From a virus: 48,767 nucleotides of DNA. Location: positions 1-48,767 of the IMG/VR virus record IMGVR_UViG_2716884425_000003. The stretch is one strand, 5' to 3'. The notes beneath the pieces were generated by a model that ran no database searches, had not been told where the DNA came from, and was given only the letters and a program-made list of their open reading frames with translations. Of this stretch, positions 9,724 through 13,637 are shown one piece after another. The translations under genes were made by a program, and so were the position numbers. Each line of letters opens with the position of its first letter. Position 1 is the first letter of the stretch.

Positions 9724-9752
9724 ACGATACTAGATATCCATTCCTTTGTCAA
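9724..9752 (-). promoter_or_regulatory. sigma70-type promoter with near-leaderless start
   Basis: TTGACA-N17-TATCGT, ATG 9 nt downstream; the -35 lies inside the end of the sigma factor gene. Confidence 0.7.
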
Positions 9753-10353
9753 GAGAAAAATCCTTTTTCATTTTTCTTTTTAATGCTCGGCGTCCTTTAG
9801 AGTGAAGATTGATTATGGTTTGGGGTGTTAGGTTAAATTTTTTTGCTATCTGTTTCCATGTTAACTTGGGTCCAGCGTCAAGATACCTAAGCTTAAAGAT
9901 TTTATATATTCTTGGGTCTGCCATTTTCTTTAGGACTAGTACCGCGTGATCTAAATCATTCTTTAGTTCTTTTCTTTCATCATATTCTGAAAGAGACTTG
10001 GCATTAAAGAAGTGAGTTATCTTTTCGCTATCATCAATAATATATTTATAATTATTTTTTATATAATTTAAGCAGTGAAATCTAGCATAGTTTGCTAACC
10101 AAGTAGAAAATTTAGCGCCCTTCGTTGAGTCGTATGTTGTTATAGCTTTGTAAACAACGAAGTCTCTGTCCTTGTATATTTCGTTTAGGTCCAGCTTGGA
10201 GCCGAACTTGTTGCACATAGAATAAAATAAATTACCGTGTTTGTCTATAATCTTTGTAAAACTATCACTACAATTGTTATTTTTAATTAATTTAATTAAT
10301 TTTATGTCTTCTTCATTGCTGTTTTTCAGTTTCGCCATTGTACCAATCCGCAA
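9730..10353 (-). CDS. Phage sigma70-family RNA polymerase sigma factor (regions 2 and 4)
   Basis: 'YDSTKGAKFSTWLANY' (region 2) and 'LTWKQIAKKFNLTPQTI...RRALK' (region 4 HTH). Likely start is MAKLK, a few codons in. Confidence 0.85.
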   Translation of the reverse strand: MRIGTMAKLKNSNEEDIKLIKLIKNNNCSDSFTKIIDKHGNLFYSMCNKFGSKLDLNEIYKDRDFVVYKAITTYDSTKGAKFSTWLANYARFHCLNYIKNNYKYIIDDSEKITHFFNAKSLSEYDERKELKNDLDHAVLVLKKMADPRIYKIFKLRYLDAGPKLTWKQIAKKFNLTPQTIINLHSKGRRALKRKMKKDFSLDKGMDI

Positions 10354-10930
10354 ATTCCTTTACCTTTTGATTAAGATACTCGCTTTCTTCCGGATTGTCA
10401 CATTTTATTTTTTCCCACTCGATAGAAAAGTCGGCGTGATTCTTTAAAATCGGATCTTGGCGCTCCTCTTCAGAGTTGGCTGGCGCTTTCCAGACACGCT
10501 TTCCATCTTTGTTTACGTACTGAGAAATGTGAACAAGTACGCCGTCTAACTCGTTCTTTAACCAGTAGACTTCATCTTTCTCATATTCTTGATACCGAAT
10601 GTCTGTGACTACTGGAATGTCGTTAGTCTGCGCGTTAATTAAAAACTGCTTTACCTTTGGGGTTAACTTGTCCACCCAATACCTGCCGTTAGTGAGTTTA
10701 CGCTTAAACACTCCGTGAAAAACTAGAAACTCTCGGATTTGCTCCTTTTCTTCTCTACTGCAGCCGATGGGTTCAATGTCGTATTGATCGTAACACCACT
10801 GGTTGCAGTCATATTTAAGTTGGTCGGCTAGAGCAAATCGTCTAACACCCATACGCTTACAAAGTAAAGAAAAAAATAAATCCTTACCCGCACCTGCAAC
10901 TCCACTAATACCAATCGGCTTACGCATCAC
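10313..10930 (-). CDS. Deoxynucleoside monophosphate kinase (T4 gp1-like)
   Basis: P-loop 'IGISGVAGAGKD', 'FALADQLK', 'VVTDIRY'. Confidence 0.8.
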   Translation of the reverse strand: MMRKPIGISGVAGAGKDLFFSLLCKRMGVRRFALADQLKYDCNQWCYDQYDIEPIGCSREEKEQIREFLVFHGVFKRKLTNGRYWVDKLTPKVKQFLINAQTNDIPVVTDIRYQEYEKDEVYWLKNELDGVLVHISQYVNKDGKRVWKAPANSEEERQDPILKNHADFSIEWEKIKCDNPEESEYLNQKVKEFADWYNGETEKQQ

Positions 10931-10936
10931 AATAAT

Positions 10937-10965
10937 AATTTATAGTCTTTCCTGTAAAAAGTCAA
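10937..10965 (-). promoter_or_regulatory. sigma70-type promoter with leaderless start
   Basis: TTGACT-N17-TAAATT; GTG 6 nt and ATG 9 nt downstream. Confidence 0.65.
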
Positions 10966-10982
10966 GGTATTTTATTACTGCT

Positions 10983-10991
10983 GTGTAAATA
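10983..10991 (+). promoter_or_regulatory. Putative late promoter motif GTGTAAATA
   Basis: GTGTAA followed by 9 nt then ATG, the same spacing as at 41968. Confidence 0.55.
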
Positions 10992-10997
10992 TCTTAT

Positions 10998-11645
10998 ATG
11001 GATCATAATTATTTATTTATTCACATACCCAAAAGCGCTGGCACCTCTATTAGTCAGACCTTAGCAGGTATAAGGAATTTTAAATTTAAAATGAGAGAGT
11101 GGGGGAGGCCAGCGCGCTGGTCGTACCCGTTTTTTAATGAAGAAATATCTCCGCATTGGCCTATCTCTAAGTATGTAAGCAAGGGCTACAATGTTGAGTC
11201 TCTATTTAAGTTTTGCTTCGTTAGAGACCCCGTGGAAAGGTTCGTGTCAGCGTTTTACTACTTGAGGGATTATGAGCACAAGAAGCCGGGGGCCAATGAA
11301 AACACTCATAAATACTTAAGTGAATACGACGGTGATATAAATACCTTTATAGAAGAATGGCACAGCCACCCAGTCAACCCAATAGGTAGGCCCCACTTTA
11401 AAAAGCAGACATTTTTTATAAAAATAAACAACCAGATTAAAGTGGACTTTATAGGGCTGTTTGATAACTTAGAAAAAGATTTTAATTTTATTTTAGACAA
11501 GATAGGCTACCCTAAGGTTGAACTTAAAAAAACAAATCGAACGCCTAAGATAAATAGAACGCAACTGACCAGCAAGTCTATCAGGAAAATAGAGGAGCTT
11601 TACGCAGAAGATGTTGAATTATATCATGAATTACTGAAGCGTTAA
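10998..11645 (+). CDS. Sulfotransferase family protein (Sulfotransfer_2-like)
   Basis: PAPS-binding motifs 'FIHIPKSAGTSI' and 'FVRDPVERFVSAF'; C-terminal 'YAEDVELY'. Confidence 0.88.
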   Translation: MDHNYLFIHIPKSAGTSISQTLAGIRNFKFKMREWGRPARWSYPFFNEEISPHWPISKYVSKGYNVESLFKFCFVRDPVERFVSAFYYLRDYEHKKPGANENTHKYLSEYDGDINTFIEEWHSHPVNPIGRPHFKKQTFFIKINNQIKVDFIGLFDNLEKDFNFILDKIGYPKVELKKTNRTPKINRTQLTSKSIRKIEELYAEDVELYHELLKR

Positions 11646-11685
11646 CGTTTTCATATGGGAATTACATTTTTCTAGAACATAGGAC

Positions 11686-11712
11686 ACAAAACCCCCACTA
11701 GGAGGGTCTTGC
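11686..11712 (-). terminator. Intrinsic terminator-like hairpin closing the candidate ncRNA
   Basis: GCAAGACCCUC-CUAGU-GGGGGUUUUGU, an 11-bp stem whose G-U pairs form only on the minus strand. Confidence 0.7.
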
Positions 11713-12024
11713 GTTAGTATATGAGAAACATTTTTCTTAGACCCAGTGATTTAATTGATGGGACATTCAAGACATATACGCAACTCTTTCGAGAACCATC
11801 TCCCATATAGGGTGAGAAACTGTGCTTAAAAACTCATTACAATGGTCAACCACAACACGCCGGGGCATTGCAGCGGGAACTACCCACTAGTTTTTTTAGG
11901 ACGTATAAAATCCTAGGCATACCTTTGAATATAGACTTCTGCCAAAAGCCCTGATTCGGGAAATCTCATCTCGGGAAAACTCCACTGTTTACTCTCAGCG
12001 AGCTTAAAAGGAATTTCACCTTTT
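11686..12024 (-). ncRNA. Candidate large structured non-coding RNA (about 340 nt), family not recognised
   Basis: Largest ORF-free gap in the window. It has at least 8 hairpins plus nested long-range helices, a T-loop-like and a GAAA loop, an upstream promoter and a terminal hairpin. Confidence 0.7.
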
Positions 12025-12029
12025 GAATG

Positions 12030-12058
12030 AAGGTACTACGTCTCCGAATTATTGTCAA
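12030..12058 (-). promoter_or_regulatory. sigma70-type promoter for the candidate ncRNA
   Basis: TTGACA (12058-12053)-N17-TACCTT (12035-12030); the predicted +1 falls at the base of the first hairpin. Confidence 0.65.
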
Positions 12059-12467
12059 TATCTTTTTTTTCTGAAATTAAAAGGTTAGCAATATAAATTA
12101 AATTTTTTAAGTCTTTTTCTTCTATATTTGTTGGGTCACATTTTTCTTTATCATCTTCTATCCTATCACAAAAGCTATTAATTATGCTAGATATAGTTAC
12201 AGCTAAGTCGGGAGATACAGTAACGGACTGCTCGTAAGAACCTAGTGATTTATTGAGCACCCAGTACTGTCGGTGATCGTCGGGACTCCACTCGTCACTA
12301 ACCAGACCCATCTCTTTCATTTTCTTTAAGCCGCACAATACTGTAGCCTTGTCCTGATTCGGGTGCTCGGTGATTGTGATTAAACTCAAAAAATCTTTAT
12401 CAATGCAAAATGTGTCGTGTTCAATATACCAATTATATAGGTGGCCGGTCGCCTCGAGGATAGTCAT
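12036..12467 (-). CDS. Hypothetical protein, possibly winged-helix-like
   Basis: Track ORF 12036..12539; ATG at 12467 (MTILEATGH) lies 6 nt after a TATAAT and is the likelier start. Confidence 0.75.
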   Translation of the reverse strand: MTILEATGHLYNWYIEHDTFCIDKDFLSLITITEHPNQDKATVLCGLKKMKEMGLVSDEWSPDDHRQYWVLNKSLGSYEQSVTVSPDLAVTISSIINSFCDRIEDDKEKCDPTNIEEKDLKNLIYIANLLISEKKDIDNNSET

Positions 12468-12473
12468 GTCTAT

Positions 12474-12502
12474 ATTATACGTGCAGATCAAATAAATGTC
12501 GA
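12474..12502 (-). promoter_or_regulatory. sigma70-type promoter, leaderless (left member of a divergent pair)
   Basis: TCGACA-N17-TATAAT-N6-ATG. Confidence 0.75.
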
Positions 12503-12511
12503 AAAAAAAAC

Positions 12512-12539
12512 TTGCCAATAAATAGATACGTGGTATCAT
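12512..12539 (+). promoter_or_regulatory. sigma70-type promoter, near-leaderless (right member of a divergent pair)
   Basis: TTGCCA-N16-TATCAT with TG extension; ATG 8 nt downstream. Confidence 0.7.
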
Positions 12540-12547
12540 ATACCTAT

Positions 12548-12814
12548 ATGAATAACGAAGAAAATACTCAACAAGAAAACGCTCAAGTTACTCAGCCTTC
12601 AGTCTGCACTCCCCCTAGGCGCGGTAGACCACAAGTGAACGTAAATTGGCCCAACACCGAGTTTACCTTTGACAGCCTGACGGAATCTAACAAAGCGCTT
12701 TCTTCATCTTCCCTTCGAAAGAAGATGCGTACGGAGCTAGTTAATGGCAGCCTAAAAAAAGTAGGAACTGTTCCTACAACGTTTGGTAGACCAAAAAATG
12801 TTTACACTCGGTAA
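12548..12814 (+). CDS. Small DNA-binding protein (AT-hook-like RRGRP plus winged-helix-like end)
   Basis: 'PPRRGRP' and 'LRKKMRTELVNGSLKKVG...GRPKNVY'; start moved from 12512 to ATG 12548. Confidence 0.65.
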   Translation: MNNEENTQQENAQVTQPSVCTPPRRGRPQVNVNWPNTEFTFDSLTESNKALSSSSLRKKMRTELVNGSLKKVGTVPTTFGRPKNVYTR

Positions 12815-12816
12815 GT

Positions 12817-13287
12817 ATGAGTGACACACCCCAAAGACTAAGTTGGAAAGCTTACGCCTTAAAGCTTGCTTGCGTAGCAAGTGAAAGAAGCGAGGATACT
12901 TTTATGAAGGTCGGAGCCTGTGTTCTCAGGTACGACAACAGCATTGCGGGACTTGGGTACAATGGCGCACCTTCTGGTATTAGCCTAAATTGGGAAAATA
13001 GAGATCATAGGAGAGTTAGGGTAATTCACGCAGAAGTTAATGCGTTGAGGTACGCTCAGCCCGGTGAATCATACTTACTCGCGTGTACCCATATCCCCTG
13101 CAATGACTGTATGAAAACTGTGGCGGCGTACGGAATTAAAGAAGTAGTGTTTAATGACATCTACATAAGAGATATGTCTTCTCTGGACATTGCCAAAGAA
13201 TTCGGAATAAAGCTTTTTGCTACAAGTAATGTCGCAAGCCAAGTATCCGTAGAAAACAAAGATAAGTTTGAATTGATTGACTTCTAA
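12817..13287 (+). CDS. dCMP deaminase
   Basis: 'KVGAC', 'GYNGAPSG', 'HAEVNAL', 'PCNDC' zinc motifs. Confidence 0.92.
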   Translation: MSDTPQRLSWKAYALKLACVASERSEDTFMKVGACVLRYDNSIAGLGYNGAPSGISLNWENRDHRRVRVIHAEVNALRYAQPGESYLLACTHIPCNDCMKTVAAYGIKEVVFNDIYIRDMSSLDIAKEFGIKLFATSNVASQVSVENKDKFELIDF

Positions 13288-13637
13288 TGATTTTTGAAAC
13301 TATATTTCTAATTAGTTTAATCACATTAGTTATGCTAGTTTGGTTTAATAGCGATGCTTTTGTAGAGTACGCTAAACTAGTCGGTGGAGCCAAGTTTTTT
13401 GAGGTAACCGAATACGAAAAGCAGCAAGAGAAAACAGCAACCTTAGATTACCACGGGTATTTATTAGAAAATAAAAATTCATTTTTTATTAGATTAATTA
13501 CTTGCCCACTCTGTTTTTCTGTATGGATGTCTGCTGTCTTTACTTTTGTTTTAACGGACAGCTTATGGTTAGCTCCCATCTGTAATGTGTCAGCACTGAT
13601 TCTGTATAAGCTAACCTCGAACTTACTAGAGTCGTAA
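13287..13637 (+). CDS. Small membrane protein, DUF1360-like
   Basis: Hydrophobic segments and a 'LITCPLCFSVW' motif. Confidence 0.6.
   Translation: MIFETIFLISLITLVMLVWFNSDAFVEYAKLVGGAKFFEVTEYEKQQEKTATLDYHGYLLENKNSFFIRLITCPLCFSVWMSAVFTFVLTDSLWLAPICNVSALILYKLTSNLLES

Follow-up and report, generated by a model that had tools for sequence, protein, structure and literature searches.

The window analysed here is the first 48.8 kb (48,767 nucleotides) of G000, a 136.5-kb virus record estimated to be 79% complete. Its genes include tail genes and an operon that encodes RecA-like, RNR, sigma-factor, and dNMP-kinase proteins. Comparison with named phage records gave no DNA match, and the RecA-like protein shared less than 30% identity among the matches listed. 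Three sigma-70-family genes were present in G000 (window 9730-10353, L057:15206-15931, and L060:5379-6200), and its relatives were found to encode DnaB, primase, and DnaE. At the head of the operon with the dNMP kinase, RNR, and RecA-like genes lies an RNA element, in a gap (11646-12035) bounded upstream by a same-strand gene for a 143-aa protein and on the other side by a convergent sulfotransferase gene. The preliminary description had taken this gap for the only large ORF-free one in the window, which was wrong: at the left end, two further ORF-poor stretches of 370-510 nt (1-511 and 770-1139) likewise lack ORFs of at least 70 aa. Just beyond the element (10931-11652 in the window, with counterparts at homologous loci) lies an insertion hot spot, where the cargo genes encode sulfotransferases and glycosyltransferases and frequently run on the opposite strand; one related contig carries an additional 692-nt insert there. 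The features of the locus are collected in Table 1.

Table 1. Features of the RNA locus, in window coordinates
Feature	Position	Strand	Basis or remark
143-aa winged-helix protein gene	12036..12467	-	Predicted structure; usual upstream neighbour of the RNA
-35 hexamer TTGACA	12053..12058	-	Sequence; embedded in the 3' end of the 143-aa gene
-10 hexamer TACCTT	12030..12035	-	Sequence; 17-nt spacer to the -35 hexamer
RNA gene, short form, ~340 nt	11686..12024	-	Covariation; predicted +1 near 12024
P1 hairpin	12006-12024	-	80% paired; variable, missing in some members
P2 hairpin	11978-12004	-	90% paired; pair 11997:11986 significant
Variable domain P3-P6	11897..11975	-	Partner-rank test; P6 absent in some members
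PK1	11940-11943 with 11916-11919	-	Mean rank 0.30
PK2 (P6 loop)	11902-11906 with 11776-11780	-	Mean rank 0.25
Conserved core	11794..11893	-	Covariation; PK4, P7, P7b, P8, PK3, P9, P10, P11
PK4	11890-11893 with 11817-11820	-	Covariation
P7	11872-11888	-	Covariation
P8	within core 11794..11893	-	CC/GG
PK3	11854-11858 with 11822-11826	-
P9	11841-11847 with 11794-11800	-	Covariation
Dock strand	11773..11780	-	3' part pairs with the R1 3' box (helix P12)
Hairpin before R1	11742..11770	-	Loop CCC pairs with GGG 11742-11744 (PK5); 85% and 93% paired
R1, internal copy of the downstream site	11719..11741	-	Triplet, extra base, purine box, 3' box
Terminal C-run/G-run hairpin	11686..11712	-	89% paired; moderate intrinsic terminator
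Pre-R2	11677..11690	-	Resembles the dock strand; possible partner of either copy
R2, downstream copy beyond the terminal hairpin	11653..11676	-	Own-pair similarity, joint change

Homologues of the 143-aa protein led to 38 loci, and DNA patterns added more. A profile search then gave 91 matches, which came down to 46 distinct sequences, partial matches being dropped; the alignment held 44 sequences (mean identity 58%), two near-copies of the window being left out. A covariance model later added three members, bringing the total to 49 distinct homologues. The RNA followed the 143-aa gene directly in 37 of 46 sequences, lay across a cargo gene in one, and stood after a dUTPase gene in the other eight. 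Because the downstream genes differ in kind and strand, the RNA is not a leader. It was present as a single copy per genome in the genomes searched. The sole match in a bacterial genome, the MAG contig L061, was identical to the viral locus L040; it is probably a phage contig binned with a cell and is thus unusable as a host call. Measured against the more-than-one-phylum criterion of Weinberg, the RNA was seen in one phage group and in this one contig.

The 143-aa protein had been put forward as a candidate partner of the RNA. Its usual place directly upstream agrees with this proposal; the eight members behind a dUTPase gene speak against it, as do loci in which the gene stands beside an unrelated RNA, or none, in the same slot, and the partnership is unproven. 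The predicted structure (pLDDT 91.6) comprises a winged helix and a helical part. Its best structural match had a Z score of 9.1 over residues 4-73, the best Foldseek E value was 0.0085, and the ESM Atlas held no match above 0.87. The winged helix is a common fold, and the modelled one assigns no function to this protein.

Rfam 15 gave no match in the window at gathering thresholds, and a search of 11600-12150 at E values up to 10 returned chance matches only. Across eight homologous loci no match fell on the RNA, the hits being tRNAs outside it and one weak plastid match. ROOL, GOLLD, raiA, OLE, ARRPOF, Polynucleobacter-1, RNase P, and the group I and II introns are all Rfam families. This comparison, which the preliminary description had proposed, matched no family, so the RNA is not in Rfam. 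Its statement that tRNA, tmRNA, and RNase P signatures are lacking also holds, given that ARAGORN found neither of the first two in G000 and that RNase P had no Rfam match in the window. Readings of the element as a permuted RNase P or a group I intron were dropped after inspection and the Rfam searches; T-loop, anticodon-mimic, and tag-frame ideas were dropped as well, since the loops are variable and the distance between R1 and R2 falls in every frame. Phage tmRNA genes with unusual long tags coexist with the RNA in G001 and G003, and tRNAs are scattered in G001-G004, with none in G000. A description of the RNA was not found in the literature searched. A fragment may be catalogued in the supplements of Fremin 2023 (PMC10690425), which reports candidates of 29-151 nt from IMG/VR; six motifs of the RNA had no match in the supplements searched.

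The promoter proposed earlier (TTGACA-N17-TACCTT, minus strand) was confirmed in place and is backed by the homologues: TTGAC was kept upstream in 37 of 44, and 27 of 44 had the full pattern, which occurs in 4.5% of random 75-nt windows. It was not among the 14 sites found by a consensus promoter scan, for which it is too weak. The terminal hairpin was likewise present as described, with an average of 5.25 U among the 8 nt that follow the G run, and transcription may possibly read through to about 11653. The claim that the fold favours the minus strand was borne out (z = -2.07, against z = -0.01 for the plus strand; 100 shuffles each), and the sense strand folded better than the antisense strand in 9 of 12 members, in a noisy comparison with 12 shuffles each. 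Six of the hairpins paired by hand in the preliminary description (12006-12024, 11977-12005, 11933-11951, 11897-11915, 11872-11888, and 11784-11793) are present in the sequence. The T-loop-like and GNRA loops assigned to them were, judged by eye, not conserved across the alignment.

Covariation was assessed along the lines of R-scape, by a G-test to which an average-product correction was applied and whose null was tree-based. It was strong in the 44-sequence alignment; significant covariation was part of the outcome that had been named in advance as supporting the RNA. Sixteen pairs among 88,831 reached E values up to 0.5, and the 14 that were Watson-Crick compatible lay in P2, P7, P7b, P9, P10, and PK4 and in a neighbouring U-A pair. 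In the core (43 pairs, 32 sequences), 90.5% of cells were paired, with two-sided change in 26 of the 43, whereas slid controls gave 38-47%; the 5' helices and the terminal hairpin were 80% paired, with two-sided change in 29 of 42. PK1, PK2, and P12 were tested without column alignment, by ranking each element's own partner against those of other phages. The mean ranks of PK1 and PK2 (Table 1) and of P12 (0.17) fell between that of the P9 control, 0.05, and the 0.47-0.53 of the negative controls, and in the dock/R1 pairing that forms P12 the own partner ranked in the best 10% for 20 of 35 representatives. PK5 reached a rank of 0.46 because it hardly varies; compensated variants occur in L141, L145, L167, and L224. 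In 37 sequences of the alignment, 28 columns were invariant.

The RNA core carries about six pseudoknots, which replace the multiway-junction fold proposed earlier. The long-range helices drawn to close that junction (11917-11932 with 11763-11781, and AUGAGA/UCUCAU) were 61% paired and had a duplex mean rank of 0.47, like the negative controls; their covariation was 0.185 against 0.171 for shuffles, and 68 of 500 shuffles were as high. The junction is therefore not supported, and the hairpin drawn earlier at 11839-11871 conflicts with the covarying P9. The element displays the pseudoknots or multistem junctions and the several 97%-conserved bases by which large ornate RNAs are recognised. Covariation, promoter conservation, and the lack of an Rfam family together support the central earlier claim of an independent, structured minus-strand phage RNA with a host-type promoter, and we regard the reality of the RNA as practically certain.

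Seven metatranscriptome runs, marine or unlabelled and from four studies, yielded 11 contig pieces in 10500-13300, and 10 of these fell within 11706-12057, two of them being partial matches from relatives. The eleventh lay in the sulfotransferase gene with 18 differences. One contig ended at 12024, the predicted start, and one extended to 12057; none passed 11706 or reached R2. One run of unknown kind covered the flanks of the RNA. The runs were picked by words from 11400-12500, and contigs give neither strand nor level, so this evidence is supportive rather than proof; uncovered flanks in the runs are not proof of silence. Presence in bulk metatranscriptomes is more like that of a stable RNA than of a primer.

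The preliminary description had missed a pair of repeats, R1 inside the RNA and R2 beyond the terminal hairpin, which extends the element to 11653. Both copies have the same layout, in which a pyrimidine-led triplet leads into a purine box and then a 3' box. In the register chosen for maximal match, which places R1 on an invariant G, the triplet of R1 is always followed by one additional base, and the copies lie 56-73 nt apart. The similarity of R1 to its own R2 exceeded that of shuffles in 35 of 35 representatives and, when set beside other phages, placed in the top 10% for 31 of 35. At the 12 matched positions, 70 and 65 parsimony changes were counted in the two copies and 79 jointly, against about 135 if they were independent. 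For the triplet and the purine box, the best covarying partners were the identical positions of the other copy, and no Watson-Crick partner for either was found within the core. Three members found after the model had been built retain the repeat and the extra base. The DNA after R2 averaged 72% AT in 41 members. In five genomes, further R copies or trans targets of R1 did not exceed chance.

The same rule was found in an unrelated RNA. L009 is without the first RNA and has in the same slot a different noncoding insert of ~400 nt (L009:4460-4935), which had no Rfam match and whose fold score alone was weak (z -1.23). It belongs to a second family of 12 distinct members (the others being L264, L277, L282, L286, L289, L296, L298, L302, L348, L356, and L361), unrelated to the first RNA, with its own promoter, and located between the 143-aa gene and the dNMP kinase where the flanks are long enough. 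In every member, 197-203 nt separate an internal copy from a downstream one, and the extra base recurs; the triplet is CTC in both copies of 3 of the 12 and CCC in both copies of 9. The search seed lay inside the repeat, with the triplet and the extra base outside it. After the second copy, the DNA is 85-93% AT. The two families were not found together in five genomes and five fragments, one of the searches having been run without a positive control.

Direct repeats around hairpins are prone to slippage, and the pair could on that account be a functionless by-product of local duplication or conversion around the terminator. The one-base asymmetry, however, is fixed in 47 members of the first family and in the 12 of the second, and distinct linkers have been retained; the second family had already largely refuted this reading, which we consider very improbable. 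A self-processing ribozyme, its core cutting or splicing at R2 while the extra base makes R1 a pseudo-substrate that resists cleavage, would make use of the dense invariant core and of two sites that can dock in turn and differ by one fixed base. Against this, an unrelated scaffold obeys the same rule, the RNA contigs contain no joints, no Rfam ribozyme family was matched, and, according to PMC5737381, self-cleavage was not seen in other conserved motifs that have 3' terminators. A ribozyme of this kind therefore appears improbable.

Covariation of identity without a complement is what would be expected if the complement of R2 were the strand to which R1 has to pair, or if both copies were bound by a single outside reader. 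Both copies also fit RNA hairpins and share a partner strand, so their role may be confined to RNA; pre-R2 pairing with R1 had a rank of 0.33, and R2 pairs with the dock weakly (rank 0.41). The position of R2 beyond the main 3' end of the RNA, its joint movement with the RNA, and the AT-rich DNA that follows it favour a DNA target in cis. R2 accompanied the RNA between two loci and stayed with it where cargo genes separate it from the next promoter.

The strongest competitor to a DNA target, in our estimate still rather doubtful, is a scaffold role as a stable ornate RNA or RNP, comparable to ROOL, GOLLD, or ARRPOF, in which R1 and R2 would be equivalent modules for one co-evolving protein or for a multimer swap. 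Such a scaffold would suit the six or so pseudoknots around an invariant core, the occurrence of RNA contigs in four studies, and the ability of pre-R2 to pair with either copy; precedents exist in the domain-swapped dimers of ARRPOF (PMC12990946, available text) and the cages of ROOL and GOLLD (PMC12286853, available text). It is opposed by the RNA contigs, all of which stop at or above 11706 and none of which reaches R2, and by the weak pairing of R2 with the dock. It would also leave the skew breakpoints described below unexplained, and a dedicated RNA-binding partner was lacking among the core proteins scanned. G003 shares 65 proteins with at least two other genomes; 30 of these were scanned directly and most of the others through their G000 counterparts, and no known RNA-guided or RNA-binding partner was found in this set, to which DnaB, primase, and DnaE belong. 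Reverse transcriptase (PF00078) was present in 0 of 4 near-complete genomes and absent from G000, which does not fit a retron, DGR, or DRT RNA. Ro60/TROVE (PF05731) was also found in 0 of 4 near-complete genomes, which does not fit a bacterial Y RNA, although the host may possess the protein.

TnpB and Cas12 guides follow a pseudoknot, as R1 does. The element could accordingly be imagined as a natural single-guide RNA, a scaffold with R1 as 3' guide that would steer a TnpB-like protein, a sigma factor, or the winged-helix protein to R2 and so regulate the downstream promoter. T-rich bases ahead of R2 and a promoter often seen by eye downstream of it would agree with this. However, TnpB exceeded the cut-off in just 2 of 5 genomes, at 19-25 kb from the RNA, unlike what a TnpB/Cas12 guide requires; the TnpB copy of G003 has its own upstream promoter and hairpin-rich leader; R1 had no other targets in the five genomes; and R2 remains with the RNA when the promoter is displaced. 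We rate a protein-guiding role as less probable than a ribozyme. The two TnpB-like proteins are ~500 aa long (L182:253-1761 in G003 and L183:1468-2946 in G002), and the hairpin-rich noncoding stretch of ~180 nt that lies with a promoter directly upstream of the G003 gene is possibly a 5'-encoded guide scaffold of its own.

Strand skew placed the element near a compositional boundary in several genomes. In the circular genome G003, the skew at fourfold sites flips between 89.8 and 90.4 kb, bracketing the RNA, and does so for the genes of either strand. A two-breakpoint fourfold-site model with a gene-strand term located a break at most 6 kb from the element in 8 of 12 fits (six genomes), five of the eight breakpoints lying within 1.2 kb. 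Third-position skew bins showed a flip in G003 only, the plain GC skew of G000 had no switch at the locus, and in gene-level pooling over 38 loci the flip was not tied to the RNA, the DUF1360-like genes downstream of the dUTPase-type RNAs being G+T rich in 10 of 10 cases. A divergent gene junction lies 0.5-1 kb away, so the breakpoints cannot separate the RNA from the junction, and minority-strand cargo genes may drive them.

The sign of the skew was the same in G000, G003, G004, and G005 and opposite in G001 and G002. As a rule the leading strand is G+T rich, under which the majority sign denotes a terminus, not an origin. An R1-R2 hybrid or a protein-bound R2 could thus mark a replication terminus or a partition anchor (a fork trap or a centromere-like site). 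Also in keeping with such a role are the winged helix predicted for the neighbouring protein, RTP of B. subtilis being a winged-helix protein, and a tubulin-like gene of G003 that is common to two relatives (the tubulin/FtsZ-like gene L194:16983-18146, beside the terminase region and shared with G002 and G004). The two genomes of opposite sign do not agree with it; the AT-rich DNA after R2 suits unwinding, and the repeats are direct rather than opposed. We consider a terminus or partition site unlikely, though it ranks above the ribozyme.

On the identity covariation and the evidence favouring a DNA target in cis, we chose the reading of a cis-acting RNA in which R1 pairs with the template strand at R2 and forms an R-loop at a replichore boundary, probably an origin. 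We put it forward tentatively, as the first in an order that continues with the scaffold, the terminus or partition site, the ribozyme, the protein guide, and the neutral repeat. Like the RNAs of R-loop origins of the ColE1 RNA II or T4 type, the element is noncoding, driven by a promoter, confined to one locus, and followed by AT-rich DNA. Also in favour of this reading are the concerted change of the two copies, the recurrence of the rule in the second family, the skew breakpoints near the element, its place at the head of the operon, and the DnaB, primase, and DnaE genes of relatives. Host RNA polymerase would start at the TTGAC promoter, and the core would fold with R1 held between PK5 and P12. 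Transcripts would mostly end at the terminal hairpin; on read-through, the hairpin would loop out the intervening 56-73 nt while the nascent R2 is captured by pre-R2, so that R1 could occupy the template strand in its place. The extra base of R1 would form a fixed bulge in the hybrid. The displaced strand and the adjacent AT-rich DNA might then serve as the loading site for DnaB helicase and primase of the phage; alternatively, synthesis might be primed by the 3' end of the RNA. The slots of five fragments (L028, L029, L032, L033, and L035) contained neither RNA family, which counts against an origin; that of L029 is a gene-poor, AT-rich kilobase with 27% GC and neither family detected (L029:3426-4432).

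The analysis leaves a real, uncatalogued, multi-pseudoknot RNA with an unexpected co-evolving copy of downstream DNA: the family, its fold and promoter, the R1/R2 pair with its concerted change, and a second, unrelated RNA under the same rule are established. We further considered, as a doubtful generalisation, that large aquatic phages might start or organise replication with interchangeable, protein-independent RNA machines that invade an adjacent DNA site by strand exchange. Each machine would be an ornate scaffold with a built-in copy of its site, and at least two unrelated scaffolds would obey the bulged-triplet rule. To our knowledge, structures of large ornate bacterial and phage RNAs have been solved and almost no functions assigned. 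This RNA offers a built-in functional clue, the co-evolving copy of downstream DNA, which a second scaffold repeats independently; with compensatory R1/R2 mutations, the hypothesis of RNA-directed DNA opening can be tested directly in vitro, with no need to culture the phage. Should the hypothesis hold, an ornate RNA would gain a function, and nature would be seen to recognise DNA with a device made of RNA alone.

Among known systems, oriF and oriG of T4 are R-loop origins with a promoter-driven transcript and AT-rich downstream DNA, and the phage RNA resembles them in both respects; we know of no conserved ornate fold or internal target copy in T4 origin transcripts. A G-run/C-run direct-repeat detail marks the start of the ColE1 hybrid. 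ColE1 RNA II forms a persistent hybrid according to the available text of PMC5043065, and the phage RNA would be like it as a noncoding RNA made by host polymerase with a proposed cis hybrid near its 3' end. It differs from ColE1 in that no antisense RNA I was seen, in that helicase, primase, and DnaE are all supplied by phage genes, and in that the hybrid is here only predicted; sequence and fold were compared with RNA II through Rfam alone. In common with the TnpB omega RNA and the TldR and VIPR guides, as far as the available text of PMC10705468 and 10.64898/2026.04.26.720920 describes them, the RNA has a DNA-matching segment after a pseudoknot and a gapped match; unlike them, it has no linked effector gene, no repeat array, and a single, fixed, adjacent target.

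Like ROOL and GOLLD, the RNA is phage-borne, free-standing, and rich in pseudoknots, and it combines a conserved core with a variable periphery, but its 340 nt compare with about 580 and up to over 800 nt there (PMC12286853 and PMC5737381, available text). It also differs from them in having no Rfam match, in lying outside tRNA clusters in G000, and in carrying a copy of downstream DNA. ARRPOF is described in the available portions of PMC5737381 and PMC12990946 as an RNA of ~255 nt that has four pseudoknots and lies in a region on which plasmid replication depends. The pseudoknots and alternative pairings of the 3' domain are common to both RNAs, and the replication-region setting would be if the phage element is an origin; a downstream copy is not reported in those portions, the phage RNA has no match to ARRPOF in Rfam, and ARRPOF belongs to a Fusobacterium plasmid rather than to large aquatic phages. 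By Rfam, the phage RNA is a member of neither the ornate families nor ColE1 RNA II nor ARRPOF. Judged by analogy, it is like the ornate RNAs in form (PMC12968392, available text), and it may work like ColE1 RNA II or ARRPOF.
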